From positions 12,990,790 through 13,054,789 of the forward strand of contig CM119269.1 of the NCBI GenBank assembly GCA_051294375.1: DNA of 64,000 nucleotides. The letters are read 5' to 3'. The notes beneath the pieces were generated by a model. That model was given only the letters and a program-made list of their open reading frames with translations. It had not been told where the DNA came from and ran no database searches. This DNA comes from Paraspadella gotoi (lineage: Eukaryota > Animalia > Chaetognatha). The position numbers were made by a program, and so were the translations under genes. Every line of letters begins with the position of its first letter. Position 1 is the stretch's first letter. This document shows, piece after piece, positions 1 to 63,032 of the stretch.

Positions 1-3000
1 AGTTATCTCAGAAAAGTGCAGAGTTCAAGAAGTACAAGGTTCTCTCCCTTTACCTACATTAGCCTCTACTTTTCACCCAATTGCAGATCTGGGGTACGCG
101 ATAGCGATCCCAGGATGCAGGCGCTAAGAAAGTCATTGGCGGAGACGGAAGGAGGTAAGGTCAGCGCCGCCGATCAGGCCGCGCGGGACGACGTCGCGAG
201 ACAGATGGAGGAACTGAGAAAGTAAGTATCGCTTAGAGAGATTGATAATGATCGCTTCGTCTCAACCGCTCATTGGTTGGTTTCTTTAAACCAATCAGAA
301 TGGGCGTCCGCGATAGCGATCCACGAATGCAGCAATTGCTGAAAGAGGACGAGCGATTGGCTGATAAGATGTTGGAAGAAGCGAAAAAAGTAAGTCGTTT
401 TTGACGTTGAATAATGAATATCTCTTTTTTCAACTTGAAATCGGTACAGTTTCCAGTTTTTTAAGTGATTGTGTTAAACGAATTAAAACTAGTTTGAGCA
501 AACAATGCCGGATCTGCCCACGATCATTAGCGTGCAGCTGATCACACAAGGTCTTAATAATTTATTAATTAATATATTAAATAATTAATTAATAAATTAA
601 ATAATTAATTAATTAATATTAATTTTTTTATTCTCGTTCAAATCTTTTTTCCACTTTGCCTCGACCACAAAACAACAATATCGATTACAAAATTATAAAT
701 TATAAAAATAATAAATTAATTAATTACAAAATAATTAATTAATGACTAATTTATTAATAATCTACGGACGGACGGACAACATTTTATTTTGCATAATTTA
801 TCATAATTCGATATTCTAAGATGATGTAAGTAACTTACCAACAAGATTTGGCGGTGGGACCGACGGACCGAAAAGGTGGATTATAGACCGGAATCTGCTG
901 TAAGCAGATCCGGCTAAATTATACCTGAGATTCTAACACGCATATCGCTCTTCCATGCCTCTAAAGCAATAAATCTTACGTGAAGGTAAAATCGTGATAA
1001 GTTGAAAATACCATATTCATAAGTCTAGAAAGATTACATACAGAAATTCTAAAAGTCAATTATGAACAACATACGCATCAGGTGAAACATTTAATGTTGT
1101 AAAAAAAAATTAATTTTGTTTTAATTTTCGCATAGCCTATATTTATATATAGTACTATCCTTATAAAATCGAAAAATTTCAAAATGGGTTTCTTAATTTT
1201 TGATTGCAGATGTGAATTCCTCGTCAAAGTTGATTTAGAAGAAAATATAAATCATTTTAAAAATTCTTTCACTTAAAGTGAGTTAAAAATTTAAAAAAAC
1301 TATTATTTTAATATATAAAAAATTAATTTCAGCTTTAAAAATAGCTTTTTCTAATTTTTGACCCACTTAATGAAGAATTTTTCAAAAAGAGTATATGTCT
1401 TTTTATCAAACTTTTTTATGACAAATCCAAATCTGCCTAAAAAATTTAGAAAAAACTGTTTTGAAATTTTAACATTTATGGTTTAGTACTATGTATTAAA
1501 ATATGGCTCTACTGCGCATACAAATTGTTAAAATTTATTATAAATTTTTTTTAGCATAAAATGTTCTATACAGTATAGGTGTTCGTCCTCACTTTTGAAT
1601 TTTAATTTAAAGTTAATAACTTTAGGAATTTTACTACGCCGTTAATATTCCATGATATGAATTAAATTAAGTAGTAAAACTCATGATAAGATCATCAAAA
1701 TTTTATATTCTGCTTTTTAGGCCTTAGTATTCTCCGAACCTTGATCAGTCATGTTCATGTCATTTGTCATCTTCAGACGGGACTCCGCGACGAAGATTCA
1801 AGCAATGAAAGATCTTCGAGTCGCCGTCGGGGAGAAAGCACGAACGTCAGGCCAAGCTTGACAAGGAGTTGGAATGAGAGAGAGATAGAGAGAGACAGAG
1901 AGAGAGAGGAGAGAGAGAGAGACAAGAGAAGAAGAGAGAGGAGAAGAGGAGTAGAGAAGAGAGAGGAGAGAGGGTCATGAGGAAAGGGATGAGAGATAGA
2001 GGGAGAGAGATGAAGCTGTAGGAGACGGTAGTATAGAGAGAGAGAGAAACCATGATGACAAAATGGATCAAATTAGCCTTTCTGTCTTTTTCTTTCTTCT
2101 CTTTATTTCTCTCCTCTCTTTTTTTTTCTCGCCACCAGGAGGCGCGCGCCCGCGGGGACGAGGCGGCCGTCAAGCGTCTCCTCGAGGAGAGCGGCCGCGG
2201 CGATGAGGCGATGACGCGACGAACCTCCGACATCAAACGCAGCGTCGCCGGCGCAGCAGACACGGCAGCGCTGGTTACCAAAACCTCGGCGCAGCTGGAA
2301 AAGGAATTGAAGTACGATGAAGCCATTGATTTAATTTTTAAATCATTTATTTTATTTGTTTATTTATTTATTAATTTATTTATATTTCGAATGCGACACC
2401 TTTTCTGGCGTTTAAGCTTACCACTTCCCTCTTTCAACTTTCCGCTTCCTCGTATCTCGCTTCCCATTTTTCAATCCCCTCACTTCCCCCCTTACCCAAT
2501 CCCCCAAATCCGTTTCCTCTTCCCCCGAATCCCCTCACTTCCCCTAACCAATCCCCCAAATCCGTCCCCCTTCCCCCGAATCCCCTCACTTCTCCCCTTA
2601 CCCAATCCCCCAAATCCATCCCCCCTTCCCCCGAATCCCTTCACTTTCCCCTTTACCCAATCCCCCAAATCCGTCCCCCCTTCCCCTGAATCCCCTCACT
2701 TCCCCCCTTACCCAATTCCGCCCCCTTCCCCTGAATCCCCTCACTTCCCCCTTACCCAATCCCCAAAATCGTCCCCCTTCCCCAAATCCCCTCACTTCTC
2801 CCCTACCGAATCCCCCAAATCCATCCCCCCTCCCCCAATCCCCTCACTTCCCCCCTTACCCAATTCCCCAAATCCGTCCCCCCTTCCCTCGAATCCCCTC
2901 ACTTCCCCCCTTACCCAATGCCCAAATCCATCCCCCTTCTCCCGAATCCCCACTTCCCCCCTTACCCAATTCCCCAAATCCGTCCCCCCGAATCCCCTCA

Positions 3001-3647
3001 CTTCCCCTAACCCAATCCCCCAAATCCATCCCCCCTTCCCCCGAATCCCCTCACTTCCCCCCTTTACCCAATCCCTCAAATCCGTCTCCCGTTCCCCCGA
3101 ATCCCCTCAATTCCCCCTTACCCAATCCCCCCTTCCCGAACCCTCCTCACTTCCCCGCTTCCCTTCCAGAGACCTCGGTCTCTCCGACGCGGAGATTCAA
3201 CGTCGTCTCGAGGAGAATCGAGAAAGAAGATCACAAGCGGAGGCGGACATGAGGGCGGCGAAGAAGGCGGGATCGATTCAGGTCCAACGTTTTACTCTAA
3301 TCTTTAACAACGACTGATTGTAATGAAATTATAATTTCACTAAACCGTTTCTTTAATCTCAAACACAACGAAACGAAAGAAAAATGAACAATGTCTACTA
3401 TTAACCTCTATATTTCCAGCCAGAACCCCAGAGTGTGTCAAAATATTTTGAAAATATATTAGCTCAAGATGAGTGTAAATTGAGATATTAAAACTAGATT
3501 ATGAACGAAAATCCTAGAAAGTGCGAATAAAAAAAATGACTGACCGACCATGGTTTGTTCAGATGGAAGACGCGTTGGCCAAGGGCGCGGCGGCGGGGAT
3601 GGACGACTCGAAGGCAGCGGCGGAGGTCTCCAAGGATTTGGCCAGGT

Positions 3648-5693: not shown

Positions 5694-8600
5694 CTTCTCT
5701 TCTTCTCTCTCTCTTCCCCACAAGGACGAGAGCCTCATCCTCGACGCAGAGATGAAGCTCATCCTCCTCGTCGCCTACAAACATAAGAAGTTGCCCTACA
5801 ACAAGCGAGAGCTCGAGGGTCACTTCAGGCGCCTGCACAAGAACGCCCTCATCGGGTTCACGGCGCCCGGGGACGCCACCGCCGACGCCAAGTCCGCCCT
5901 CGAGAGCGCCAAAGCTGCCAAGGCGGCGGCGACGAAGGACATTCAGGCGAAGATCGGAAACGCGGCGTCGCTTTCAATGGACGACCTGGAAAAGGTTGAA
6001 AGGGGGCGTGGCGGATGATTAGTAGAGTTATCCGAATTTGTAAAGCTATTGCGTTTTAAAATTATTCGGAGAATTACACAATGTCGAAGAATAGTTAAAA
6101 TTATTTCGTTAATTATTTAACGAGGCAAACCTTACCGACCCTCTAACGGGTCGATTGGCGAAAAAGCAAATTAGCATTGTTTCATTTACATTAGTTTTCT
6201 TTTGGATTATGATAATTAAAATTGATAATTATAGAAGTTTAAAAATAACAATAAAAAGTAATGAAACTTAAATGCTTTGAGGATATTTTCGGCCGTGCGC
6301 TCGTTATCATTAACTCGTTTCCTCTTTTAACTAGTCGTGTTAATATATTTTATAATAATATGAGTAATCGTTATTCCATTTCACGCCTTTATTCATGGAA
6401 TCCTCCAGGTCATCGAATCGTTCCACATGGAAGGCCTCAGCGCCGGCTCTGACGGAGACCTCTACAAAGCAGAGAAGGAGCTCCTGCAAAAGACCATCAA
6501 AACAGATCCTAATAAACTGAGGAAGAACCTCAGACTCGTCTCCTTCAACGGACTCAAGGTGAGTCATTGCTCTTTTGTTGATCCCGGTTCCATTCGTTTG
6601 AATGGGTTCATCGCTGCGTAGATGGCGCTGCCAGAATTGGATCAGAGCTACCCGGAAATCAACGAGGAGATGAAGGAGAAGGAGAGGTTGAAGGCCGAAT
6701 GCATCAAGGAGCTTCAGCGGGGAATTAAAGAAAAAAACTTGGACGTCCTGCAGGTCACTGCTGCTGCGGCTCCTGCAGATATTTGTCACGGTCATGTAGA
6801 GTTTGCCGTGTCGATTGCAGTGCAATCATCATTTGAGCAAGAAACTCGGTCTCGAAGAGAGCACGGATCCAATCGGCAACGCCAATAAAATGATTTTCGA
6901 GCTGCTGAACGGAGACGCCAAGGGCAAAGGTAGATCGAGGAAAATTTATGTTGTTGTTGTTGTTGTTGTTGATTCAATCCGATCGTCACAATACTCTACT
7001 ATTCAAATACATTACAAATTTCTAAGGGGGCGGGGACATGGATTTGTCGCGTTTCAGCAAAATGAGCATCGGAAGTTTGGAGCAATTGTTGGAATCGTTT
7101 AAGAAAAATGGTTTGGGAGACGATCACCCCGCAGTGAAGGTTCGTCCATTTTCGATTGACTTTTGTTTTTGGAGAACTATTGTTTTGTTATTACTTGCGA
7201 CAGGCGGCGAGAAAAGCTTTGGAAGATCAACGTCGCGCCAAAGAAGAAGCGAAAAAGGAACTGGAAAGAGCTATTGCATCGGGGGTATGAAAGAAAGAAA
7301 GAAAGAAAGAAATAAAGAAATAAAGAAAAAGAAAGAAAAAGAGAAAGACAAATAAAGTAAAATATTAAAACAGAACTGAGCACAAAAAGAATGTTATCCC
7401 CCCAACGCTTGCAAGGATGTCGACGCAATCAAAAAAGCGATGGACAAGCTGAAGACGACGGGCGGCTTGGACGACAACGAGACCAACATGTTGCTCGACG
7501 GGATGAAGACGTTGGAGAAGAATGTCAAAGAGGAGAGCAAAAGATCTCTGAGCGAGGGCATCGACAAGGCTGGAGCATGTCAGTGCTTTCCCGTTAATGC
7601 ACTTAAGCCTTAATTTAATCGATCCCTTACTTTGAAAAAAATTGAATCGTTTCTCTTTTGTGTGTTTATGTTTTAACTTCGTTATTATCTCTCATTTTAT
7701 ATTTCATTCAAAAGAAAAAAACCAAAGTCAGGTGCTATGGTGGACTAAAATCCACCAACCGTTCATCAGCGGCCATTGGTGCCGGAGGCAAGTCGTTCGC
7801 CTCCCGCCCCGGGGGTCCGGGGTTCTAGCCCGGTGGTCGTCTGGCAGTTTGAGAGGGACGGGGCGCTTGACCCGCCTGTGGCATGGTGTTGCGGCCTGGT
7901 CCGAGGCTCGGGACTGCTTATATTGAACGGTTCTGTCACTATAACTGTGAGAGAGTCTTGATTGAAAGCTTGCAGGGACCTGCTATGACATTATCTTGTA
8001 AGAGTGATGGAGGCGTTAAACCACCAAAGCCTGTCCAAAGTCAGGGGCAAGATAGCTTATTTATTAAATGAATGGATAATTTTTATATTGGTTGTACCAA
8101 TTTCATAAAATTTCAGCTCCTTGTATTTTGATGCTAGTGCGGAGTACAATAAGTATTCCCCGATCTAATACTTAAGGAGTGGTCTTTTTATACAATTGAA
8201 ACATTCTTTGAAATATTTTCCACTTCATTGATAGGGAAGCCAGGTACTCTGGGAGTGAATAAACGAGACTGTGAGAGAGTCTTGATTGAAAGCTTGCAGG
8301 GACCTGCTATGACATTATCTTGTAAGAGTGATGGAGGCCTTAAACCACCAAAGCCTGTCCAAAGTCAGGGCAAGATAGCTTATTTATTAAATGAATGGAT
8401 AATTTTTATATTGGTTGTACCAATTTCATAAAATTCAGCTCCTTGTATTTTGATGCTAGTGCGGAGTACAATAAGTATTCCCGATCTAATACTTAAGGGA
8501 GTGGTCTTTTCATACAATTGAAACATTCTTTGAAATATTTTCCACTTCATTGATAGGGAAGCCAGGTACTCTGGGAGTGAATAAACGAGACTGTGAGAGA

Positions 8601-11600
8601 GTCTTGATTGAAGCTTGCAGGGACCTGCTATGACATTATCTTGTAAGAGTGATGGAGGCCTTAAACCACCAAAGCCTGTCCAAAGTCAGGGGCAAGATAG
8701 CTTATTTATTAAATGAATGGATAATTTTTATATTGGTTGTACCAATTTCATAAAATTCAGCTCCTTGTATTTTGATGCTAGTGCGAGTACAATAAGTATT
8801 CCCCGATCTAATACTTAAGGGAGTGGTCTTTTCATACAATTGAAACATTCTTTGAAATATTTTCCACTTCATTGATAGGGAAGCCAGGTACTCTGGGAGT
8901 GAATAAACGAGACTGTGAGAGAGTCTTGATTGAAAGCTTGCAGGGACCTGCTATGACATTATCTTGTAAGAGTGATGGAGGCCTTAAACCACCAAAGCCT
9001 GTCCAAAGTCAGGGGCAAGATAGCTTATTTATTAAATGAATGGATAATTTTTATATTGGTTGTACCAATTTCAATAATAATAATTACTGTCTCTTCATTG
9101 GTGAGCCCGACTTCCGAACACAACAGCAACAACAAAACTCTCAGGCGACATGCCTCAACCTGGCGATGCACTTTCCGCCCACAACACATCAGGCGACATG
9201 CCTCAACTTGGTGACGAACTTTCCACAACAACAACAATTCACTGAAGAGACGCAACAGACTTCTCCCTACGGAGGGGGGGATGTATGGTGGACTAAAATC
9301 CACAACCCGTCATCAGCGGCCATTGGTGCCGGAGGCAAGTCGTTCGCCTCCCGGCCCGGGGGTCCGGGGTTCTAACCCGGTGGTCGTCTGGCAGTTGAGA
9401 GGGACGGGGCGCTTGACCTGCCTGTGGCATGGTGTTGCGGCCTGGTCCGAGGCTCGGGACTGCTTATATTGAACGGTTCTGTCACTATAACATAATAATA
9501 ATTACTGTCTCTTCAGTGCCGTATTTTTTGCATAACAAAAGTGAATCATTAAATAAAATAATAATGATAATTTTATTTTTAGATGATGATGATGATGATC
9601 CAGAATTAAAAGCTGTTATGAAAAAACGTTTAATAACACTCACGTTAAAAAATATCGAGAAAATTTTTAAACAAAGAAACAAAATCCTGAAATATAATCA
9701 CTTATTGATGCCCCACTTTGATCTCCTTTACAGCCGCTGGCAAAAAAGCCGTGGATGACCTGGAGAAATTCGGGCTCGACAAAGACGGGGAGGTTTTGAA
9801 GAGCGGCGGAGAGGCGGTCAAGGGGCAGCAGTCGAAGGAAGACGCGGCGCGGAAGCGGCTGGAAGATGCGCTGAGGAAGGGAAACGACAGGGAGATACTA
9901 GAGGCTTTGAAGGTCCGACTTATGTATTCCCGTGTAAAGTGTAAAGTATTCGGTACACAAAAACTAAGTACGATCATATTTTATCGGTATTCACTTCCAG
10001 GCTGCACGAGGTGTGCTTCCCGACGATGATCCGCTCATGAAGAGGGCCGAGCAGCACCTCGTCCAGGCGGCTCTCAAGGATGACAAGCTCATGAACGACG
10101 TTAGTTCATATTATAATTATTAACAAGAAGTTTCTATTGGTACAACCAATAAAAATTATCCATTCATTTAATAAATAAGCTATCTTGCCCCTGACTTTGG
10201 ACAGGCTTTGTGGTTTAAGGCCTCCATCACTCTTACAAGATAATATGACATAGCAGGTCCCTGCAAGTTTCAATCAAGACTTTTTCACAGCTCGTTTATT
10301 CACCTCCAGAGTACCTGGCTTCCCTATCAATGAAGTGGAAAATATTTCAAAGAATTTCAATTGTATAAAGAACCACTAACCTAAAACTAACACCTAGACC
10401 ATTAACACCTAAAAAATATATTAATGTATTAAGTGAAAATTCTCTCTTTCCTCTCTCTCGTCTTCTCTACATCTCTCTCTTTCTCTTCTCTCTCTCTCTC
10501 TTCTTCATCTTCTCTCTCCTCAGCTGAAAAACGTGATCGGACGCCAAGCTATGGAGGAGGCTATCGCGGATATGGAAAAGTCGGGGGCGGACCCGGCAAC
10601 GATCGCAAAGGCCAAAGCCAATTTGGCCGATATGGAGTCACGTGACGCCAAGCTTAAGAAGGAATTGGAGGTGAAGCGTGCCGGTCGACTTCGACAGCGC
10701 CGTTGACCTTTTTTATTTAAAAATTGTAAATCTGAAACGGAATTGTGAGCAATTGAAACATTTTTTGTTTTTTTTTATCTTTTGTTTTTGACGACAGGCG
10801 GCGCTCGAGTCGGGCGACCCGAAGAGAATACAGGCGGCGCTGGAGAAAGCCAAGGCCGCGGGCCTGATGAACGACGATCCGGCCCTGATTCAGAAGGCGG
10901 AACACTTTCTTCTCAGGCGCGTTGAGTGAAACTTAGCCTTTACTTACCTTTAGTTTGGGTTCTAAATCCAAATACTAAATTAGGATGAGCTATGTATTAA
11001 TTTATTTACCTCCAAGTGCATCCGTAATCCGTATTACAGGGCGGACCCCAAGGCCGCTAAGGAGAATCTGAAGAAATCCTCCGTGGAGGCGGCGGAGGGA
11101 TACATGACAGGCAAACCTGGCGCGACGAAGGAAGTGGCCGCGCTCAAGGAGAGAGATGAAATGCTGAAGAAGAAGTTGGAACAGGCTTTGGCCTCGGGTG
11201 CGAAGCGCTGTGTTGGCACACATTTCTATGAATTATTTTCTATAATTTTACTCTTAATTTTAAAAATTTATATTGATATCAGGGAGAGAGTCGCTGATCC
11301 GTCAAGCCTTGCTCGAGTGTAAAGAGGCCGGACTCACGGACAAAGACTTGGGCGGACTCATGACAAAGGCTGAGAAGCAACTCGTGAAAGGTCCGCACAA
11401 CAAATCGGACAAGGTCATGGCCACCTTCGAACTTATGTCCGAAGACGCGCTGGCGAAAAAAATCCAAGAGTTGAAGGAATCGGGTAATTTTGGGTTTCTT
11501 GTCGTGACACGAACTTAATAGTTAATAAGACGCTTTTTGGTCTTACTATTCATAGATTTATTTTTTTTTTAAATAAATTTAAAAATAAAAAGGAATTCCG

Positions 11601-21919: not shown

Positions 21920-24900
21920 ATGAGTGGCGTTGGCCTGGCGGTAATCACTGCCGCCCTAACCCCAACTTTGCCTGGTCGTCTTCGGCCTTTTTTCAACGCA
22001 GTCGCCGTCGAATGCTCCGCCCTCTATCTTCACTTGACACCGGCGGTCGGCAGCGCCGCCTACGTTGACGCCCCTTTGGCACCGGGATTCCGGTTGGCGA
22101 CGCTTCCGGTGGACGATTTAGCACGTCGCGTCATCGGAGGAATTTACGGAGACGCTATTCGGGTGGCGCCTATGGTTGACGTCAGGTGACATGAGGCATA
22201 AGTCTCTGATCGCACCCATCAACTCTTCATATCTTATTCTCCCAACAGAATCATACTATCGAACTTCGGCAAAGATCCTCTCTGGCGTCCCGCCCCTCAT
22301 CGCCTGTCTCGCCGATTGACCCACATATTCACAGATCATGACGACTCGTCGCTCGTCGCCACTTACGTCCATGGCTACTTTTCTAGTCTCCACTCCGATA
22401 AGGACCACCTTCATGTCAGGGATTTGGTCATAGATCCAGACAAGACGACGTCGCAGGCTCCCGCGAACCCCGTTCCAACTTTTGATCACGTCGTTCTTGG
22501 CGGAACTTTTGATCGACTTCACGCTGGACATAAAATGCTATTAAGTACATCTGCACTCGTCGCGAATAAGGTCGGAATAATCGATGTAATATTGTTTCGA
22601 TTTCGAGTGACTTACGAGGTTATGAATGACTTACCTTATATAATATTCGCGTTTATCTATTACATTTTTTCTTATGTATTCCGGCAGAGCGTCACAGTTG
22701 GAGTAACAGATGGAGAGATGAACCGAAAGAAAACGCTTTCCGAACTCCTCGAACCCACGAAACATCGGGTGGAGACGATTCGCGATTTCTTGCTCGAGTC
22801 GAAACCAAATTTGGAGGTGATAGCCGTTCCCATCCTCGACGCCTTCGGTCCTTCAATCGTCGACGAGCGACTTCAAGGAATCGTCGTTTCTCAGGTTTAC
22901 ATACAGGGGTGGGACCCTATATAGAGACAAGGCTTAACGTCCTGCCCTGTCTGAATGATTTTAGATACAATAATATTATAAGTGGCAAAAGTTTTTTCTG
23001 GCTTTTTACTTCCATATACAATTAAAAAAAATAAATTTTTAAGCAACTACAAGGCGTTGTGAATGTTTTCAAAACATTTAGTCGTTTTTATGCGCGCGCA
23101 TTGCATTGCATACGATAAAAGCCTGATTTTAAGCTTTTCAACACTATCAAAATTTTTTTTCTGGTAAGTAAAACAAAATTTTATGAGGATTACAACAAAT
23201 ATGCTTAAATTGTCAAATACATCATGTATTTCTTACCTTTTTGACGCTTTTATTATGCATTCAGAAAGCTTACATGATTCATTTAATTACCTGACAATAT
23301 TGTTAATAAACTTTTTGATAAAAGTAAGTTTTAATAAAAATTAAACGATAACAGAAACGTACCCAAACCTTACCTGCTTATTTAAAAATTTTTTAAACCA
23401 AAATACCATGTACACTAAGGCGTAGTGAAAGTTACATACGAAAATTATAAAAGTCAATTTTGAACAACATACCATCAGTGAACATTAATTTATAAAAAAA
23501 ATTAATTTTATGTTTTTTAATTTTCGCAGTAGGCTATATTTATATATAGTACTATTCTTATAAAATCAAAAAATTTTAAAATAAGCTTATCTTAATTTTG
23601 ATTGCAGATTTGAATTCCTCGTCAAAAGTTGATAAAAGAAAATATAAATCATTTTTAAAAATTCTTTCATTAAGTGAGTTAAAAATTAAAAAACTATATT
23701 TAATATATAAAAAGTTAATTTTCAGTTTAAAATATAGCTTTTTCTAATTTTTGACCTACTTAATGAAGGAATTTTTCAAAAAGAGTTATATTTCTTTTTA
23801 TCAACTTTTTATGACGAATCCAAATCTTCAAAAAAATCTTTAAAAAAACTGTTTTGAAATTTTAACATTTATTGGTTTAGTACTAGTATAAATATGGCCT
23901 ACTGCGTGAATTGTAAAATTTATTATAAATTTTTTTATTACATAAATGTTTATTAGTATAATGTTGTTCGTTCCTCATTTTTAGAATTTTAATTAAAGTT
24001 AAATTTAGAAATTTTACTACGCCTTAGTGAGGACAGTTATTAAATGTTTTGTTTACGTTTTATCGAAACAAACAAATTTCCTTTATTATGTCTCCTCTCT
24101 CTTTTTTCTTTTAATTATATGTAGCTCTCTCTCTCTCTTTTCCCCAGGCTGATTCATCGATATCGGGGAAATAAACGAGTCTGCAGCTGGCTCTGCAGGG
24201 GCTTTCTTTCTTTTTCTCTCTTTTCTCCTGCTGCTTCTGCTGCTGCCGCCTTTTGATTTATTTCTTTTTTTCTGGCTGCCGCTGCTGATTCGTCCGAAAA
24301 CGATTTGGCTTCTCTCTCTCTCTCTTTCTATCTCTCTTTCTCCCTCTCTCTCTTTCTTTCTTTTTTTTTCTCACTGCTGATCAGTTTATTTGACAATAAA
24401 AAAGTTGTTTTTTTTCAGAAACTTTAATTTTCCTCCGTACTTTATTATTTTTTTGATTTATATATAAAACATAGTTTTCCTTTATAAAATTTGATTTTTT
24501 GAGTGTCAAAGTTTGTCATGAGTTCATATTTTTTTTATACAATTGCGACGATTTTTAACTTTGTCTCGATATAGGGTCCCACCCCTGTAAAATAGGAAAA
24601 TAATTTTATTGACTAATAAAAATGACTTAGAAATTAAGTCGAAATATATGGCAAAAAATTTAAATTTTTTTGTTTCTTATGCACAGTTTCTCCATAGTGA
24701 AAATAAGTATTTAAATAAGAAAATAATACTTTTAAGAAACCCGAATCAAGTAATCTAAACTGCTACAATACGCAAAGTTTGAAAAACACAATCTCATTTG
24801 AAATTAATCACAGGAGACTTCGAGTGGAGGCGACGCCGTAAATTTAAAGCGTAAAGAGGCTGGCCTCTCTATATTAGAAATAGTCACTGTGCCTTTGCTC

Positions 24901-26813
24901 GAGGAGAATGACTTTGAAGATGGCGTCCGTGAGATCACTCATGAGGACAAGATGAGCAGCACCGCCAAGAGGATTGCCGCTCTGGGTAATTTTAAAGCTT
25001 TTATTCTAGCCTCGCTGATATTTATTTCTTAATTATCTATCTTTAGTATGACTTGTCAGTCAGTCTTACGTGTATTTAAAACTCTTATTTACAATACTAT
25101 GAATCTCACCGTTGGCTTTAGGGGCTTCCGACCCTCAGGGGCACCGCCTGCCACTGGCACGGTTACCCTAGGACGGTCCCGCTTTGCCAACGCAGTGGAA
25201 GTCGTTAGGACTCTGGAATATGGATGGAACGTAACACTTGGGATGGTGCGTTCCTTCTCTGAGCATTGGCTGAATGTAGCTTGATGTAAGGCGGTGTGAA
25301 TTTACCACCACAACATATAATTTTTGATTCGTTATATCAATAGGTTTTTAATAACATAATGACCTAATTGAAACTGATAAATTGTAATTTTCTATACTTT
25401 GTACATTGTACAATGTACAGTAAGGCGTAGTGAAAGTTACATACGAAAATTCTAAAAATCAATTATGAATAACATACCATCAGTGAACATTAATTTGTAA
25501 AAAAAATTAATTATATGTTTTTTAATTTTTGCAGTAGGCTATATTTATATATAGTACTATCCTTATAAAATCGAAAAATTTTAAAATAGTCTTATCTTAA
25601 TTTTGATTGCAGATGTGAATTCCTCGTCAAAAGTTAATAAAAGAAAATATAAATCATTTTTAAAAATTCTTTCATTAAGTAGGTTAAAAATTAAAAAAAC
25701 TATATTTAATATATAAAAAAATAATTTTCAGCTTAAAATATAGCTTTTTTTAATTTTTGACCTACTTAATGAAAGAATTTTTCAAAAAGAGTTATATTTC
25801 TTTTTATCAACTTTTTATGACGAATCCAAATCTTCAAAAAAATCTTTAAAAAAACTGTTTTGAAATTTTAACATTTATTGGTTTAGTACTAGTATAAATA
25901 TGGCCTACTGCGTGAATTATAAAATTTATTATAAATTTTTTTATTACATAAATGTTTATTAGTATAATATTGTTCGTTCCTTATTTTTAGAATTTTAATT
26001 AAAGTTAAATTTAGAAATTTTACTACGCCTTAATGTACAGGCACTTTGTTACGATCTCCGAAACGGCGAACTCCGAACAATTTCAAACCGGCCTACGTGA
26101 TCGGGCTGACTGGAGGGATCGCGAGTGGAAAGACGGGAGTTGCTCGAAGACTAGAACGGTTTGGGGCCAAACGGATTGACTGCGACTTATTGGGTCACGC
26201 GGCTTACAAGAAGGTGGTAGGATCGTTTATGGTTTAGCTAAAGAATACTTACAATTTTATGATGGACTTTTTAATTTCTCGCCTATTTTTTCATTTTGAA
26301 TTTTTCATCTACAAACAGGGAACGCGTTGCTTCGATCAAGTTGTATCCCGTTTCGGCGTCGACGTCGTCGACTCCACATCCGGGGAGATCGATCGTCGCG
26401 CGCTAGGCGCCCGCGTCTTCGGCGACGCGTCTCGTCGCGCCGATCTCAACGCCATCGTGTGGCCGGCCATCCGTGAAGCGGTTGAGAAGGAGATTCGATC
26501 GGAAGAAGAACGAGAGAAAACTGGTCGTCGATCGGTGGTCGTCGTCGAGGCGGCCGTCCTTCTCGAGGCCTCGTGGAACGATCTCGTCGACGAGGTCTGG
26601 GTCTGCGTCGTTCCGCCTTCGGAAGCCGTCAAACGTGTCGTCGACCGCAACGGCCTCTCCGAAGCTGACGCCCGTTCGCGCGTCGAGGCGCAACTGTCCA
26701 ACTTGGAACGCGTCGCCTCCGCCAACGTCGTCGTCTGCACGCTATGGGACCCGGCCGTGACGGAGCGTCAATGCGAGAAGGCGTGGAAACTGCTTCTCGA
26801 CCGGATTGACTGA
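21920..26813 (+). CDS. COASY: Bifunctional coenzyme A synthase (PPAT + dephospho-CoA kinase), multi-exon
   Basis: VVLGGTFDRLHAGHK (HxGH), KMSST motif, YVIGLTGGIASGKT P-loop, EAAVLLEA.W. Confidence 0.96.
22904..24587. mobile_element. Non-autonomous Tc1/mariner-like element (1.68 kb) in COASY intron
   Basis: 27-bp TIRs CAGGGGTGGGACCCTATAT(A/C)GAGACAA, flanked by TA at 22902-22903 and 24588-24589; no transposase ORF. Confidence 0.8.
23416..24026 (+). mobile_element. hAT-like MITE nested in the Tc1-like element
   Basis: TIRs TAAGGCGTAGTGAAA / TTTTACTACGCCTTA; near-identical to 25421-26032. Confidence 0.85.
25110..25192 (-). ncRNA. Type-P5 twister ribozyme with P3, family C, antisense in a COASY intron
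   Basis: Minus strand: CGUUGGC(P5) AAA GCGG(P2) GA CCG(T1) UCCUAGGG(P1) UAA CCGU(P2) GCC AGUGGCA-GGCGG-UGCCCCU(P3) G AGGG-UCGGAAGC-CCCU(P4/L4) AAA GCCAACG(P5). Confidence 0.9.
25421..26032 (+). mobile_element. hAT-like MITE with 8-bp TSD ATGTACAG
   Basis: 15-bp TIRs and a perfect 8-bp duplication at 25413-25420 and 26033-26040. Confidence 0.9.
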
Positions 26814-35185: not shown

Positions 35186-38100
35186 ATGGGCGACGATCCC
35201 CACATCGTCGTCGGCGCCGCCGAACTTCGGCAGCAGCTGCTGCATGTTCGCACTGAGCTCGACGCGGAGCGCGCTGCGGCCACCGAGTTTCGACGCCGGG
35301 TCACCCACGGGGACAAGGAGAAGCTTACCCTCGTCTCGAACCACAATGAGGAAATGGCGTCGTTGCGTCACCGCGCGGCGGCGGCGGAAGCGGCGCTGGA
35401 AAACTGTAACGCCGCAAAGTGCGAGACGGAGTGTGAATTGTTGGCGGCCGTCAAACGCGTTGCTGGATTGGCTAAAACAATCGAGGATAAGGAAGTTAGT
35501 CTTTTTTGGGAGTCGGACTTTTTCTTTTGTTAGTTTTTGGTTTTTTAAATTGGAATTTTTGTCAGGCTTCTCACGCAGAAGAACGCGAGTCCTTTCGCTC
35601 TCAAGTTGAAGATTTGCGTCGACGTCTTTCCAAGTCTGAGGATGAAGGCGCGAAATTCACTTTTGCCGCCGAAAAGAAAGAGTCGGCCCTCTCTGGTGCG
35701 ATACTCGCCAAGGAGCAGGAGTTGGATCGTGTTCGCAAGGAGCTCGAGCTCACGCAGGTGTTCAGTCTTAACTAAAAACGTGCAGATAATCGTTTACGTA
35801 CGTATTTATGAAAATTATGTGTACTACGATACGACTAAGACTTCAAACAAATTTAGAAAGTCAAATATATTTTACATATTAAATTTATAGTTTCATTTAA
35901 TATAGTTATATTTTGTGTATTTTACTGTTTAATTCCTCCGTTTTGAATTTCCCAGATCGCGAAATCGGAATTGGAGAAACTGTCGGACACGAGAGAGAAG
36001 CAGATCGTTGAGTTGGAGCGGAAGGCCGCCGAGTTAGATTCGGAATTAGGAAGACGAACGGACGAGGCCAAGCTGCAGAGGTCCGAGTCAGATTGGATGC
36101 TGCAGAAAGAGAAGCAAACCAAGCAGGTTTGTCAGTTGTGCATGGAGTGATCTTTATCTTTTGTTTACCAGTTTTTGTTCTATTGCAATATTTTAATTCA
36201 TCGTAGGAACTCGAAGCGTTGGTGGAAAAGGCTAAAGGCCTTGAGGCAAACGTCGAATCGGAACGCGCGGCTCATCTCGAAACGAAGTTCAACTCTGAGA
36301 TCGTGCAGCTTCGCCTTCGCGACGTGGAGGCAGCGCTCGAGGATGCGAAAGCCTCCAGCGCCTCCAAAGACGCCGCGTTGGCTGATCTTCGCGCTAAACT
36401 CGATGCCGCCGGCGATTCTCTGCGCGAGGAGAAGAAATCGGGCTTCAAGTCGACGAACCGATTGAAGGCGACGTCGGCGGAACTGGCTGACGCTCAGAGG
36501 CACGTCTCTCAGCAGGAACAACTCGTCGATGAACTCTCCAAGGAGATCGACGCTCACCAGAAACACTTCGCCGTTTTGAAGGAGGAGCTGGAGAAAACGA
36601 AAGCCAATCAGCGTCGCTTGGAAGGCAATTACTCCACCTGGCTCAAAGACCTCGAGATCACCGTCTACAACTATTGGCACACCCTTAAACAACGACAGTT
36701 TCACGAGGATTATCCCCCTTCCCCGCCCTCTTCGTCATCTCCTTCGCCCAAGTCGCTCGTCGAGGGTCTTAAAGTTCTTCTCGGTGAATACCTCGTTCAC
36801 CTTCAAGATTCAAAGGCATCTTCCGAGAACATGTTTCGTAAGGACTCGAAAATCACGGAGCTGCAACAGACGCTAGGTCGTCTCGAGTACGAACTCGAGC
36901 AGCGGAGTCGCAAGATCGTAGAAGCAGCTGCCGAAGCTGATCGCCGCGTCGATGAGCGGGAAGCCCTCGCCGCGTCCCTCGAGGCCGAAAGAGCAGAGAG
37001 AGCGAGGATCGAGGGTGACAATGGAGACATTCTCGAGGCTCGAAGAGTCGCCGACGAGGAGAAGGTGGCATTTCTCGGCGCCACTCTCGCCAAACTCTCG
37101 GCGATGATACCGAATTCAACCTCCTTGTCGGATTTTAACGACGAAGCCCCCGAGGCTGGCAGACTATTAGAAAGCGTCGCCACTGTGGATAAGTCTTGGA
37201 ATCGATTGACAGCGGTGACGACGGAATACGTGGCAAAGGTGACCTCTTTCGGCCTAATTTGTTACAGATTGAAAGCTTTGTTTTGAAAAATGAACTGAAG
37301 TAATATAAAAATTAATTCTATTTAATAGATAAACTATCTTGCCCCTTATTTTTGGCAAGCTACTATGGATTAAGGCCTCAATTCCTCTTACTTATTAATA
37401 TAACTACGTACGTATTATATTTTCACGCAGTTGGGACTCGTCCTGAAGGCACTCAAAAAGAAAGCGCGAGTCTGTGAAGACGAAATGAGAAACGCCGAGG
37501 AGGGGCGAAAACAAATGGCCGAGGCTCAAGAGGAGACGTTGCATCAAATGGCCGAAGCCGCCGCTGCAGTCGAAGCCAAAGCTCTTGAAGAGAAGCGTCA
37601 GTTGGAAGACCATTTTGGGGAGGCTCTGCAAAAGGTGCCTTGAAGAAAAAGGAGCTTGAGAATGTTTTTTGTATTTTCAAGAATTTCCCATCGACTCTAG
37701 GTCCACGATCGCGCGAAACTAAGTGACGCCGAAGCGCAAGACGCTCTCGATCGACTCCGGACGGCAGAGGCTTCTCTTCAAAAATGCTCCGCCGAGATCC
37801 GCCTGTTGAAGAGCGAATCCAATCGCCTGCTAACGGATCGCACCAGTTTGACGGCCGCTTGCGCTCTCCTTGCCGGCGTTCTTCTTTCTCAAACGACGCG
37901 CAGATGCGTGGAGTCGCGCCATCGTTTAGCCGAAGAGATGAACGCTCAGGCGACGACTTTTCGACGCCACTGCATAGTCTTGGTCGAAACGCTCAGTTCT
38001 GAATTCCCGTCGGGCGACGAAGACGAAACCTTGCCCAAGATCCGTCGGGGTTTCGGCGCTCTCCTCGCATTTCGTCGCGCCGCCATCGTTATAATCGCCG

Positions 38101-40077: not shown

Positions 40078-43000
40078 ATGTGTTCAATTCGTAAGATTAT
40101 AACGCTGCTTCCAAACTCTTTAACATTGGACCGAAATTTAACTTTGGCTGCCAGGACGTTATGGCCGCTGGAAAGGAGCTTATTTCGCAGCTCCAGCGGC
40201 TCTGCAGCACCAGCCGTCGTCGACCCTCCCCCACGTCCGAAAGAAACTCACGAATTCCCTTTAGAACGAATTCGGAACTTTAGCATCATCGCTCACGTGG
40301 ACCATGGAAAAAGCACCCTGGCCGACCGCATCCTCGAAAGTGTCGGCGCAATTAAAAAACCTACACAGGGCAAGAACGAGCAGGTCCTAGACAAACTGCA
40401 GGTGGAACGAGAGCGAGGAATCACCGTTAAGTCACAGACGGTGAGCTTTCGTTACCAGCACGAGGGCCTCACTTATCAGATTAATCTTATAGACACTCCC
40501 GGGCACGCCGACTTTAACTACGAGGTTTCGCGGTCGCTAGCCGCCTGTCAGGGCTGCATCCTTTTAGTAGACGCTAATTCTGGCATCCAGGCGCAAACCA
40601 GTGAGTTTTACTCGTGTATTTAATCACAAATATATACATATTTAATTCTCATATCGGTCCGCCTCGCCACGAAATGCCCTTTTGTTCGCGCTAGTCGATA
40701 GATCACGCGTTTATCAGAGTCAGAAAAACGAACAAAATAACATCGAAAAATGAAAAAAAGAAAATCCAGGGGGAAGCCGTCACGTGACCGGCCTCGACCA
40801 ATGGGAGCCCGGCATCCACCGAAGCCGGTTCTCTCCCTCATCCGGGAAACTGAGATCATCAATTCTTTTTTCGCGCTCATCTAGTTCGGTTGTATCCTTT
40901 CTGATTTCGCGTTTTTTCTTGACTTTTTCACGATTTTCTCGTATATCTACGTTCGAAACCCGCTCATTAGAAGTCAAGCAGAGACGAACGTTCGGACAGG
41001 AAGTCTGACAGCCGAAAACGTTCGGACATGTCTCTAAACGTAGAGAGGGACTGGAGATCCCTCGGGGGCTGAGAGGTCCAAGGGAGACCGAGCGGTCTCG
41101 CCCCCGCCGCCACCTGCCCCACCGACACCGCCTTCTCCCCCTTTTACCGGGTTTTCGGCAGCCCGATTCCGTCGGTTTTGGGGACTCGGCCCTACCAACC
41201 GACAATTTCCGTTGCCCGGCCGAGCGGTGGGGCTTCGTCCGAGGCGCCCTCTCTCGCTGCTCTCGGACCAAGTGGCGGCCGGTCTGGTCATCCCCACTGC
41301 CGGATGACGAGACCAGAGGACTGGAGTCTGTCCTTCGACGATGGTTTCGCACTGAACAGCTTTAGGAAGGATTTCGACGATTTTCGCCGCGAGTCTCAGC
41401 GGCGTTTCGACGCTTTGGGGCGGTGAGTTTTTTCCCGCCAGATGGCGTAGTGGGGGTTTTAGCTCGTTTTTCAAAGCCTCGCCTCCCTCTTTTGTTTCTC
41501 CTTTATTTCTTTCTTTCTTTTTTCGAATTATTCGATTTTGGATTTTTAGAATTTTTATTTCGTCTGATTCGATCGAAATATTTTTGTTGAAATAACCGCT
41601 TTCCTCCGCCTCTTGGCATGGGGCATTTCGTGGCGAGGCGGACCGATATGAGAATTTTTAATTCCTTTATGGAATATTAATTCTATATCGGTCCGCCTCG
41701 CCACGATCCCACCGTCCGCCCCTTTTTGTCTCCTACCATGTTTTTTCGTGGCTTTGGCGTGGCTTAGGGAAAGGGGGTTGGGGAGAAGGGAGGGGGGGGG
41801 TTCGGGAGTTTTTCCGTTTAATTCTCGCGCTAATTTGTTTACCGCTTCGTTTTTTTAATGTGACGATTCATATCGGTCCGGTTTTTCTCTCCACTACGCT
41901 TCGCCTCGTTTGACGAGTCTCGAATTCCTTCCATGCTGTTCCGACTCCAGTAGGCGGCCCCCTCTCAGATCGGGCGCCCGCCTCGGACCGTCACAGGTCT
42001 CGCCTCTACCCAAGCGTCATCGATCCCACACAGTGCCGGATCCGGACGCCAAGTACTCCTCCGATTCGGCGGAGGAGGGAGAAGTTTCGTCTTCGGATGA
42101 CGACTCGGCGGTTTTCGACGCTTCCTGCCCACGAGCAGGTCGCGCCGGTTCCAGGTTCGTACATGTGGCGTTCTCTTCGCTGCGTTGGGGAAGGGGTCTT
42201 CCTCACGGCCAACTGGAACTCGCTGGGACGCCCGGCGATCGGCAGTATACGCCACTGGATCGACGTCGCTTCTCCTCCGGAGTTCACCGCTCCGACGCGG
42301 ACACGTGCCTCTCCGCTCAATTCGAGTCGGCGTTTTCCAAGGGAATAAGCGGCTACTCTCCGCTCCTTTTCACGTGCGATGCAGGAGAACGGCGCTACGC
42401 GCATGCCATCCTTACAGTTGTCGATGAGCTGCGCGGAATCAAGGAGGCTCTCCGTTCCGGCTCGTCCAGAAATGAGGTCAGCGCTAGCGTTGAGCCCTTG
42501 CCGCCCCGCTTCGCGACGCGGCTCTTATTCAAGCGGCGTCCCTCAACCTTTCAGTCGGCGAGATCCGCCGCCAAGTCCCGCTGTGGCGCCGCAGGATCTC
42601 CGCGCCACGCTTTCTCGCTCCGCGCCCACCGCATCTTCCTTTTTTGGTATTCAGGAAGCGCAGGTGGAGTCGGCGCTCAACTCGACGCTTATACAAAACA
42701 TCGCTCGCGCCTAACCCGCTGCCGACAAGCGCCCTCGTTTCCGCTCGTAGTCTTCCTTCAAGCGCAAGTGGACCAAGAAGTCTGTTCCCCGCAAGAAGTC
42801 GGGAGACGGGAAGGGCCGGGACTCGCATCCCGGCGAATGACTCGAAACGCCTCCCTCGCGGTCGCCGCCTCGTCCGACCGCCCAGGTTTTAGGCCTGGAT
42901 CCGCCCATGGACTCGAGTCTCGACACGGACCTTTCCACGCCGGCGCTTCTTCCGGAAGTCCCCGTCGGAGGTCGGCTTCGTCTCCTTCAACCCTTTTGGA

Positions 43001-46000
43001 CGACGTTCGTTGGCGAGACGTCGCCCATTCTCGATAACTTCTCGGGATTCCGCCTCGAGGGGGCGAAGCAGTTTCCAGCACGCTTCCATCTTCCCTCGGA
43101 CGAGACACCGTCCTTTGGGGACCGAGACGCCTTGGTCGACGCAGAGATTGCGGCGGCTTTGGGGGAGGACGCCATCGAGGTAGTCCCGGTTTCTCCGGGT
43201 TTCTTTTCCATGTTTTTCCTCGTTACGAAGAAAGATGGAGGCTGGCGCCCGATTTTGAACTTTAAAAAGCTCAACTCTCGTTTCCTTTCGCCGCCTTATT
43301 TCCGGATGGAAGGAGCCCCGGACGTACGAAGGATGTTTCGACGAGGCGATTGGGGTGCCTCGGTAGACCTTCGAGATGCTTCTCCTTCTCCCGATCCACG
43401 AGGATCATCGGAAATTTTGCCGCTTCTTTTGGAAGGGCCGCATCTTCCAGTACAGAGTCCTTCCATTCGACCTCTCGACGGGTCCTTGGCTTTTCACCAA
43501 GACGACGAGGCTCTTAGTGCAGTGGCTCCGCCCACAGGGGATTCGATGTCTTTTTTTATTTAGACGACATCTTGATCCTGGTTTCCTCGGCGGACGATTG
43601 TCGACGAGCCACTCGGAAGGCGGTGTGGCTACTCAAGGAGGCGGGGTTCATCATCCACCTTCAGAAGTCGAGCCTGTCTCCCTCTCAGAGTTTCGATTTT
43701 CTCGGTTTGGTTTGGGACAGCCTCTCCCACTCCATCGCGCTCCCGGAGACGAAAATTACGGCTCTTCACTCTCTCGCGGAGAATCTTTTGCCAACGACCG
43801 CACCACGTGCTCGTCAGTGCCTTCAGCTTTTAGGCCTTTCGACGGCGGCGTCCATGGCAGTACCGCTGCTGCGCTGCCGGCCCTCGAGGATTCAACGAGA
43901 CGTCAATCGTGTCTACAGGTCGGAGAAGGATCTCGACCGTGTTGTTCCTCTCCACTCGCCGGCGATGGAGGAGCTGCGGTGGATCGCAGCCCTCTCTCCA
44001 GACCAGTGCTTCGCTCTGATCGACGACCTCCTCCCGGAGGTCTGCACGCTGGAGGGGACGACGGATGCTTCGTCGCAGGGATGAGGGCTTCTCCATCAGG
44101 GCCAACTGTCGGGGAGAACCTGGTCGACTGCGGATGCCCCTCTCCTTATCAATGTGAGGGAGTTCACAGTTCTGAGGATCTTCCTCCAACGATTCGGAGC
44201 TTCCTTCCACGGCGCGTCCATCCTTTGGAAGACGGACAGCCTCGTCTCTCTCACCTGCCTTCGTCGGGGCTGCAGCAGGAGTCCGTCTCTCTTCGGAGGA
44301 GAATCTCATCACGGCCGCAGCGTCGAGGGGCCGCAAGGTGGCGGACTGGAAACTCCTTCCGAGAGTTTTCCACCAGATGGTCGACATTTTTGGTCTCCCC
44401 AGCATCGATCTTTTCGCGACTCCCTGGTCGGCTCAAGTTCCACGTTTTTTCGCCTGGGAGGCGACGCTGGAGGCGGAGGGGATAGACGCCTTGGCGTAAC
44501 GCTGGGTCTTCGACCTGGCCTATCTCTTCCTCCCCCTCCTCTGCTGATGATGGTGATCCGCATGTGGGAGAAGGCGAGGGGCACCTTCCTCCTGATCACC
44601 CCGTTTTGGCCGGCTCAGAAGTGGTTCCAGAGCCTCCTCCTTCGGATTCTGGATGCGAGGCGCTTCCGGCGCCGAAGATCCTCGTTGTCGACCTCGTGTC
44701 CGGGCTTCCGCCACCGCAAGCGGATCGCTTCAGGCTCGTCGTCTGGAGGATTTTAGGCGGTGCCACAATCTCTCCGACATCGACGACTCCACCTTCTCTG
44801 TCATCGTCGACAGCCGGAGAGGCTCTACCAGAGAGCGCTACGCCAGAGCTTGGAGCTCCTTCTGCGACTTCCTTCAGGATAGAGAGGTTCGAGGATCTCA
44901 AGCCTCTCTAGAGGATGTTCTACGATATCTCGGTTTTCTGTGCGAGAAGGGCCTCTCGTACAGCAGATCAACCTTCACAGATCGGCCATCTCAGCTCTCT
45001 CCCCCCCTGGCGGGAGCGCCGGTTGGAGAGCATCTTTGGTCCGGCGCCTTCTCAAGGAGTTTTCGAGAGACGCCCTCCCTCACGTCGGACTTTCCCCACT
45101 TGGAATGCGGCCTCGGTTTTACGCATTCTCGACTCGGGCGCCACTTCCGATCGCGCCGAGGGATCTTCTACGGCACGCTCGCTCTTTCTCGTCGCTTTAG
45201 CGTCGCTCGTCGCCCTTCAGAGATCTCTCTCTTCGTTGCGACGCGGGTATCTTTCCTTAGCGGCAGATCACGTTCGTCTGGTTCCATCGACCTCTCAAGA
45301 CGGACAGGGTTGGACACATGGGTCCGGCGTTCCGTCTCGATTCGCTGCCGCTCTCAGATGTTGCCCGGTTCAGGCGCTGCGCAATTGGCTCTCTTCGTTC
45401 GGAATTGGCGCCGCCGCACGATTTTCTTTTCTGCACCCCGCGCCGCCTTTTCGTCAACTCTCGACGCAGCGTTTCGCCTCCATTCTCAAGGAGCTCTTTT
45501 TGGAGGCAGATGTTTCTGCGCCCCCGGGGTCGACACGCGCTATGGCGGTTTCAGAAGCCTTCGCTCGCGGCGTGGATCTCGGCGTCATCTAGCGCGCGGA
45601 GATTGGTCTGGAGCGCAGACCTTCTTCCTTTCTACTGCAGGGACGTCGCGTGGGCGCCCCTCCGGGACCTTCTAGGGACAATTGATGATCTCAGTTTCCC
45701 GGATGAGGGAGAGACCGGCTTCGGTGGATGCCGGGCTCCCATTGGTCGAGGGCCGGTCACGTGACGGCTTCCCCCTGGATTTTCTTTTTTTCATTTTTCG
45801 ATTTTTTTTTGTTCGTTTTTTCTGACCTGATAAACGCGCGATCTATCGACTAGCGCGAACAAAAGGGCATTTCGTGGCGAGGCGGACGATATAGAATTAA
45901 TATTTCCATAAAGGAATTAAAAATTCTTAACATAATGTAGATTGTTTTCCATTTCTTTTTTTTTTTCTGCGCTTTCCCCACCTCCGCCAGTGAACAACTT

Positions 46001-59589: not shown

Positions 59590-59990
59590 ATAGCAAAATA
59601 TAATATATTTGTAGTAATATCCTTATAAAATAGTAAATTTTAAAAATAATTTTTATAAAACTTTTAATAAAGATTCAGATTCTTCATAAAAAGTTGAATC
59701 AAAAATATAAAACATGTTATCAAAAATTCTGTCATCTTCAATGTTTAAAATAAGAAAAAAGGTAAAAATTCCTGACTTTTTTATTCTCTGTAGTAGAAAC
59801 TTATATATGTTAAAACGTTTTAGTCATTTTTTGTGATCTAAACATTAAAATATCATATAACATATTTTATAAAAGTTTCTTAGTTTTTTACCGCGAATCC
59901 AAATCAGTTCTTAAAAATAAAAAAAAATTATTTTGAAATTTAACGATTTTATAAGGATATTACTACATAAATAATTGAATTTGCTATACT
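59590..59990. mobile_element. AT-rich foldback MITE related to the hAT-like MITE interior
   Basis: GTAGTAATATCCTTATAAAAT... mirrored by ...ATTTTATAAGGATATTACTAC. Confidence 0.55.
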
Positions 59991-62820: not shown

Positions 62821-63032
62821 GGCGTAGTAAAATTTCTAAATTTAACTTTTAATTAAAATTCTAAAAGTGAGGAAGAACACATTATACTAATGAACATTTA
62901 TGTAATAAAAAAATTTATAATAAAAGTTACAATTTACGCAGTACGCCCTATTTATACTAGTACTAAACCAATAAATTTTAAAATGTCAAAACAGTTTTTT
63001 CTAAGATTTTTATGCAGATTTGGATTCGTCAT
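62818..63032 (-). mobile_element. Truncated inverted hAT-like MITE copy
   Basis: Starts TAAGGCGTAGTAAAATTTCTAAATTT, the reverse complement of the MITE right end. Confidence 0.85.

Follow-up and report, generated by a model that had tools for sequence, protein, structure and literature searches.

The window, the whole 64,000-nucleotide stretch of the Paraspadella gotoi assembly that was analysed, contains a COASY gene on the plus strand. One of its introns carries, in antisense, a truncated copy of a GC-rich repeat, here called family C, and within that copy lies a twister ribozyme core (Table 1). Pfam CoaE matches the two COASY exons downstream of this GT-AG intron (E 7.7e-9 and 1.4e-28), in agreement with a sequence-only reading of the same DNA that had placed the ribozyme antisense in a COASY intron. 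Upstream, the CTP_transf_like match is weak (E 0.011, below the cut-off), and two of the five COASY exon pieces are without any Pfam family. The exon ahead of the intron is presumably the end of the adenylyltransferase half, judged by likeness and by its place between the Pfam-marked exons; a 2985-nt contig of one run (X9) matches only 24811-24986, that is, this exon. The intron also holds a MITE-like, AT-rich element with long inverted ends, which recurs at 23404-24029 and 1028-1646 and, in pieces, at 59600-59970 and 62818-63032; two of its copies, 96% alike, occupy neighbouring COASY introns.

Table 1. Features at the COASY intron and the second twister repeat of the window (a dot marks a feature without strand)
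Feature	Position	Strand	Basis or remark
COASY exon, presumed end of the adenylyltransferase half	24814..24985	+	position between Pfam-marked exons
COASY intron holding the family C copy in antisense	24986..26040	+	GT...AG; frame continues across
COASY exons, dephospho-CoA kinase half	26041..26810	+	Pfam PF01121 CoaE
Truncated copy of repeat family C	25103..25312 (end approximate)	-	contig placement, GC profile
Type-P5-order twister ribozyme core (P5, P2, GA, T1, P1 region, UAA, T2, P3, P4, L4)	25110..25192	-	sequence, descriptor, pair-by-pair check
Predicted cleavage step, U25165 then A25164	25164..25165	-	place of UAA in the descriptor; U-A site per PMC8501958 (excerpts)
P1 region, 8 nt, fully self-complementary, G-U ends	25166..25173	-	fold check, dimer fold, control comparison
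P3 hairpin	25136..25156	-	variable part of family C
AT-rich inverted-repeat element (MITE-like)	25409..26035	.	same COASY intron; separate from family C
Family A, 322-bp repeat with twister-P5	7944-9073; 10136-10377; 58514-58820; remnant 37302-37391	+; -; -; 	

Checked pair by pair on the minus strand, P5 joins 25192-25186 to 25110-25116 (7/7 pairs), P2 joins 25182-25179 to 25159-25162 (4/4, one of them G-U) and P4 joins 25135-25132 to 25120-25123 (4/4), while P3, 25156-25149 with 25136-25143, has seven pairs and one U.C mismatch. The pseudoknot T1 pairs CCG at 25176-25174 with CGG at 25130-25128, and T2 pairs GC at 25158-25157 with GC at 25125-25124, all by Watson-Crick pairs (3/3 and 2/2). 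The GA bases are 25178-25177, UAA is 25165-25163 and the loop between the P4 strands is UCGGAAGC; compared with the Rfam consensus lines, the conserved bases of L1 and L4 (U-A-A, G-A, U...AA-GC) are all present. The termini of the ribozyme lie in P5, whose predicted pair probability is 0.8-1.0 across three sequence contexts. This order of elements is that of the type-P5 permutation (PMC5408937). Every pair of the complete twister consensus and of the stems P2, P3, P4, P5, T1 and T2 that the earlier reading had described was recovered, and its cleavage site between 25165 and 25164 agrees with the position of UAA; the fold it gave was right in its core elements, although it did not mention that P1 is limited to two hairpin pairs. 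Judged by its letters, the minus strand of 25110-25192 is a real twister-type core, predicted to yield a self-cutting RNA.

The descriptor used for the chance level was written after the site had been seen, and its strict thresholds (P2 4/4, P4 of at least 4, P5 of at least 7, T2 GC) are the site's own values. At that quality, 0 of 200 windows with letters shuffled within 500-nt blocks gave a match; in its loose form the descriptor gave 58 matches over the 200. It finds seven P5-order sites in the window, namely 25110-25192 and six of family A, and 0 twisters on the plus strand of the COASY intron. By score, 25110-25192 is not an Rfam member: the search with the twister-P5 model that the earlier reading had proposed gave no match there, the gathering score of RF02684 (Twister-P5, 37.6 bits) was not reached, and a scan of the whole window against Rfam at E<=10 gave nothing at the site. 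A 401-nt scan at the site returned twister-P1 alone (18.8 bits, E 0.21), aligned in register over the 3' half. Family A copies score 22-28 bits with the Rfam Twister-P5 model. Our own model, R1, built from 31 phage loci chosen by a fixed pattern, gave two matches in the window at E<=5, neither of them at 25110-25192. The covariance models likely miss the site because pseudoknot pairs go unscored, so that the changed T1 counts as four mismatches, and the short P1 and long P3 probably add to this. With Rfam and R1 both missing the site, P1 atypically short and the window copy predicted to misfold, the label "near-textbook" given to this ribozyme by the earlier reading was too generous. Exact patterns derived from the ribozyme retrieved no relatives from metagenome, genome or viral contig collections.

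T1 is paired in all 27 aligned rows by direct count (family C, family A and 25 phage or prokaryote controls). Compared with the GGG/CCC common to the 25 controls, two of the three family C pairs are changed on both sides with pairing kept, so that the different T1 does support the fold, as had been argued from the sequence. Family A has one pair changed on both sides relative to the same rows; because the selection of the controls fixed their T1, the compensation amounts to two events only. MAFFT misaligns family C with family A, and because P2 and T2 of family C are misaligned in the alignment of the controls, only T1 and P4 were counted there.

The island had been guessed to belong to a repeat family, and the contigs of four runs from three studies, placed on 24780-25420, bear this out. 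Hundreds of them were placed on the island (840 from X1, which is possibly the source sample, 397 from X5, 406 from X6 and 69 from X9), nearly all on 25103 to about 25312, and there are relatives with a compensatory P3 pair. The GC-rich island itself is present, but at about 210 bp (25103 to about 25312) rather than the roughly 230 bp first given, and the further hairpins claimed in it are not significant (z -1.5 and -0.7). Over 25154-25197 the summed depth reaches 279,000-315,000 in X5 and X6, where the single-copy flank has 7-10; in X1 the ribozyme core has 558,000-576,000, compared with about 180. These figures are not copy numbers, as overlapping contigs overcount. Even allowing for 31-fold overcounting of this kind, we infer at least a hundred copies. 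Family depth is highest on the ribozyme; upstream it falls at least tenfold, in part through divergence of the window copy there. The window copy is cut off at 25103, 7 nt beyond P5; it is truncated, because the loose ends of other copies run past this point (in 61, 41, 34 and 9 contigs). Contigs of 934-1834 nt carrying a single family C match represent dispersed copies, and in a test for tandem arrangement, in which contigs collapse arrays, none of six joints went back. Within the window, blastn found no second piece of family C, and the downstream family motif had 0 matches. Around the copy there is no target-site duplication longer than 6 nt; two 6-mers were seen and not accepted. In X5 and X6, single-copy contigs both end at 25071, with no cover at 25072-25087 or 25330-25420; these samples could be without the insertion at the COASY intron, and no contig joins across the gap. 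In X9, the dominant family C subtype differs at 25196 and 25213 from that of X1, X5 and X6, which may reflect another population or selective transcription. None of the nine runs is recorded as RNA; the RNA nature of X9 is a guess, and its ribozyme contigs were not counted as expression.

Variation within the family follows the fold. Among the 40 of 70 variable positions listed, none of them from 25103-25135, 18 fall in the ribozyme: 15 in P3, two in P2 and one in P5. None of the listed variants (again, none from 25103-25135) affects T1, T2, GA, UAA, P1, P4 or the conserved L4 bases. The P3 pair 25151/25141 is G-C in the window copy and A-U in about 77% of the X1 depth, a compensatory change, and the U.C mismatch in P3 of the window copy is a U-A pair in 93% of the family depth. 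In P2, the U-G pair of the window copy is C-G in 96% of the family depth, and the pair beside the active site is C.A in about 99%. Natural twisters tolerate P2 flaws of the C.A type (PMC11662667). Decayed family C copies also exist, since some loose-end consensus lines differ in L4 and P4.

The window copy itself may be decayed. Its predicted minimum-energy fold retains P5 and loses P1-P4, and the twister fold lies 13.5-13.7 kcal/mol above that minimum, pseudoknots not being counted. The same gap has a median of 6.4 kcal/mol in 23 control twisters, one of which reaches 13 (23 distinct cores, from the 29 of 239 loci that matched the full descriptor), and is 6.4-7.6 kcal/mol in family A. Read by hand, six of the 31 misfold pairs involve a base that departs from the family majority; with the majority base, five of these six could not form. 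Even then, the P1 strand would still pair with P4 in a competing helix. About 94% of the natural twisters tested cleave (PMC11662667), so that activity of the window copy is possible despite the misfold; on these models we put cleavage by the monomer at a little below an even chance.

Taken together, these results point to a minus-strand twister core in a truncated copy of a family that spread through RNA and cut its own transcripts, with the COASY copy an inert passenger, a reading that we consider probable. With both pseudoknots docked, the base would be G25178 and the acid A25164, following established chemistry (guanine base, adenine acid and a cut at U-A; PMC6765202, PMC8501958), and the ends left by the cut after U25165 would be a 2',3'-cyclic phosphate and a 5'-OH. 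Transcripts that read through family copies would be cut to defined ends, giving unit-length RNA if the copies are tandem, or else the end of a longer element. The cut RNA would then be turned into DNA in trans by a reverse transcriptase, most likely that of a Penelope-like element, a route already suggested for retrozymes with hammerheads, themselves linked to Penelope-like elements (PMC7761336; 10.64898/2026.07.22.740005). Family C is likely to be retroelement-like and to spread through RNA. The window holds a second twister-P5 family, a 322-bp repeat with tandem and dispersed copies, which supports this reading. Precedents are the hammerheads of animal retrozymes and Penelope-like repeats (PMC7229834, PMC7761336, 10.64898/2026.07.22.740005) and the twister variants of RTE elements (PMC8501958); twisters occur in many invertebrate groups (PMC11662667) and in one known animal retroelement (PMC8501958). 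Against spread through RNA stands the cut of the copy at the 3' side of the ribozyme, which plain target-primed insertion does not predict. At COASY, no effect is expected because the pre-mRNA carries only the reverse complement, not the ribozyme; the insertion would be tolerated, and the intron copy is probably an inert passenger.

It is possible, though we would not give it an even chance, that this reading can be refined and that family C represents the terminal repeat in an autonomous element (a Naiad-type Penelope-like element or an RTE), of which the COASY copy is the stump rather than a small non-autonomous unit. A 3737-nt X9 contig starts 9 nt ahead of the ribozyme stretch that it matches, continuing downstream, and this length, set against the 3.4-4.4 kb of Naiad bodies (PMC8557442), is a lead; a CCAAT word on the ribozyme strand, roughly 100 nt upstream, is a weak one. 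No ORF is linked to family C in the data examined, and the Schistosoma mansoni RTE layout, with the cut at the 5' junction and P1 from the target duplication, does not fit a family whose sequence extends upstream of the cut. A different account, and an unlikely one, makes family C a satellite-like repeat amplified as DNA and takes the ribozyme for an inherited passenger that selection has ceased to maintain. The very high depth, the shattered contigs and the C.A pair in most copies are in keeping with it, and recent homogenised arrays would look invariant too. However, the listed variation is uneven, gathering in P3 and beyond the ribozyme and including a compensatory pair, the long contigs with a single match each speak for dispersed copies, and natural twisters tolerate the P2 flaw in question (PMC11662667).

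That an antisense transcript of the intron would cut itself and so regulate COASY is very improbable. The core is intact at the locus, and the CCAAT word lies upstream on the same strand (a bacterial promoter scan, irrelevant here, stayed at chance level), but this is one truncated copy among hundreds of variants, it is predicted to misfold, and five of the six misfold pairs at majority-variant positions cannot form in the family majority. We give still less credence to two further accounts. One is the head of a tRNA-derived SINE, transcribed by polymerase III, with an incidental likeness to a twister: a box-A-like word begins at 25189 on the minus strand, but it comes without a box B, a tRNA scan finds no tRNA, and two pseudoknots in register are left unexplained. 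The other is chance resemblance within a GC-rich repeat. No covariance model matches, and the loose descriptor does find matches in shuffled sequence; yet none of the 200 shuffles reaches the quality of the site, Rfam twister-P1 aligns its 3' half in register, conservation in the family tracks the fold, and a second twister family has the same design. Spread through RNA of a self-cutting family is the reading that we retain.

Family C resembles the type-P5 twister (RF02684, clan CL00120; PMC5408937) in the order of its elements, its termini in P5, P2, P4, T1 and T2, and in UAA, GA, the 8-nt L4 and the optional P3. It differs in its T1 of CCG/CGG, in a P1 region that is an 8-nt palindrome and in falling below Rfam detection. 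The type-P5 class reportedly goes back to Roth et al. 2014. Unlike the animal non-LTR retrozymes and the satellite hammerheads of newt and axolotl (PMC7229834; 10.64898/2026.07.22.740005), whose ribozyme is a type I hammerhead, family C carries a twister; there is no hammerhead core in the island from 25103 to about 25312, and no Rfam hammerhead match. Retrozymes come as tandem units of 150-450 bp and accumulate as linear and circular RNA; family C is single-copy in the window, and family A is tandem. With the Naiad Penelope-like elements (PMC8557442) family C shares a high copy number in an invertebrate, truncated insertions of terminal repeats and, as far as the excerpts of that paper describe them, the lack of a canonical hammerhead; the word twister has no occurrence in these excerpts. 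A Naiad terminal repeat would adjoin an ORF for a GIY-YIG endonuclease and a reverse transcriptase. The T-variants of the Schistosoma RTE Perere-3 (PMC8501958) are likewise twisters of an animal retroelement with an unusual P1. In these the cut is the 5' end of the element and a target duplication supplies one P1 strand, whereas the P5-order ribozyme of family C is internal, family sequence reaching beyond the cut by more than 100 nt on the upstream side, and there is no target duplication longer than 6 nt at the copy.

The P1 region, between T1 and UAA, sets both families apart. In family C it forms two pairs as a hairpin and eight between two copies; the 6-nt P1 region of family A is fully palindromic in four of six copies and centrally so in five of six. 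In 116 distinct phage or prokaryote P5-order cores, which are non-animal controls that all share one T1 (117 of 239 loci, found by a pattern that allowed 4-34 nt), the P1 region has 14-34 nt, 0/116 falling under 14, and 94 of the 116 have at least four P1 pairs. With halves swapped, two family C copies fold to -69.4 kcal/mol against -54.0 for two monomer cores, a gain of 15.4, and an inactive dimer lies lower still at -94.4. For the natural tandem pair of family A at 8636-9023, the swapped form has -104.0 kcal/mol against -86.2, and in unconstrained folding six P1 pairs form between units with a probability of 0.99-1.0. P1 is dispensable in twisters by experiment (PMC5408937, PMC5113685, PMC11662667). 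The P1 of families C and A mirrors the helix of axolotl hammerheads that has a single pair and bears a palindromic loop; these hammerheads cut better as dimers (PMC7229834).

These models allow a tentative proposal, doubtful as it stands, that the animal retrozymes have a twister-based equivalent in families C and A, whose palindromic P1 would allow neighbouring copies to exchange halves and to cut in pairs, as a "double twister". The double-hammerhead trick of newts and Penelope elements would, on the same tentative footing, have been reached in an unrelated ribozyme class, and the two families could supply the missing ribozyme of the hammerhead-less Naiad elements. Against it, P1 is dispensable in twisters, tandem hairpins swap readily in folding programs, chance alone makes a central 4-mer self-complementary in 14% of cases, and the idea was formed after the sequences had been seen. 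If the palindrome does make cutting depend on two copies, this would be a natural dimer-activated twister, and dependence on dimers would be a simple way for the element to cleave its multimers and leave monomers and host transcripts intact. In the literature searched, which includes excerpts of PMC10085705 and PMC13725137 and has subscription journals outside its scope, neither twister-based animal retrozymes nor natural dimer-cleaving twisters were found, although animal type-P5 repeats may be listed in the tables of Roth et al. 2014. The twister is absent from a review of RNA dimers (PMC7357161).

The single intronic copy is of little import, and family C is the more useful object. That an abundant animal repeat carries a P5-order twister missed by Rfam suggests that current counts of such ribozymes are too low and that elements of the retrozyme type extend beyond hammerheads.

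The other twister family of the window, family A, has no similarity to family C, as had been stated before: the best blastn match between them is 9 nt (E 0.39). Its twister has T1 UGG/CCA and T2 AC/GU, and its P1 region is a 6-nt palindrome. Its array seemingly lies in sense in an intron of a plus-strand gene (exons at about 7410-7585 and from about 9735), the pre-mRNA of which active copies would cut, and the array would be the better test case for dimers. A 210-bp GC-rich direct repeat, its copies 97% alike, flanks the array at 7736-7945 and 9284-9491, and a short AT-rich word follows both the array and the second of these copies. A GIY-YIG-like reading of family A was dropped, the stretch being too short. 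Outside the window, six phage or MAG loci (L011, L026, L092, L105, L129 and L130) each have at least two P5-order twisters a few hundred bases apart.

Elsewhere in the window, a broken retroelement at 42841-45675, within a GUF1/LepA-like gene region and with no link to family C, contains a reverse transcriptase piece (Pfam RVT_1, E 4.4e-7); three of its four pieces have no Pfam match. Its later frames, by eye, resemble RNase H and a tyrosine recombinase, and the element is presumably DIRS-like. A crude pattern scan gave one hammerhead-core-like word pair at 15297 on the minus strand, likely by chance. The best matches of an exportin-7 exon in the window reach 65% identity and are mostly from molluscs, no close relative being among them. 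An intronic, C-rich 55-bp minisatellite of 12.6 copies occupies 2473-3131.
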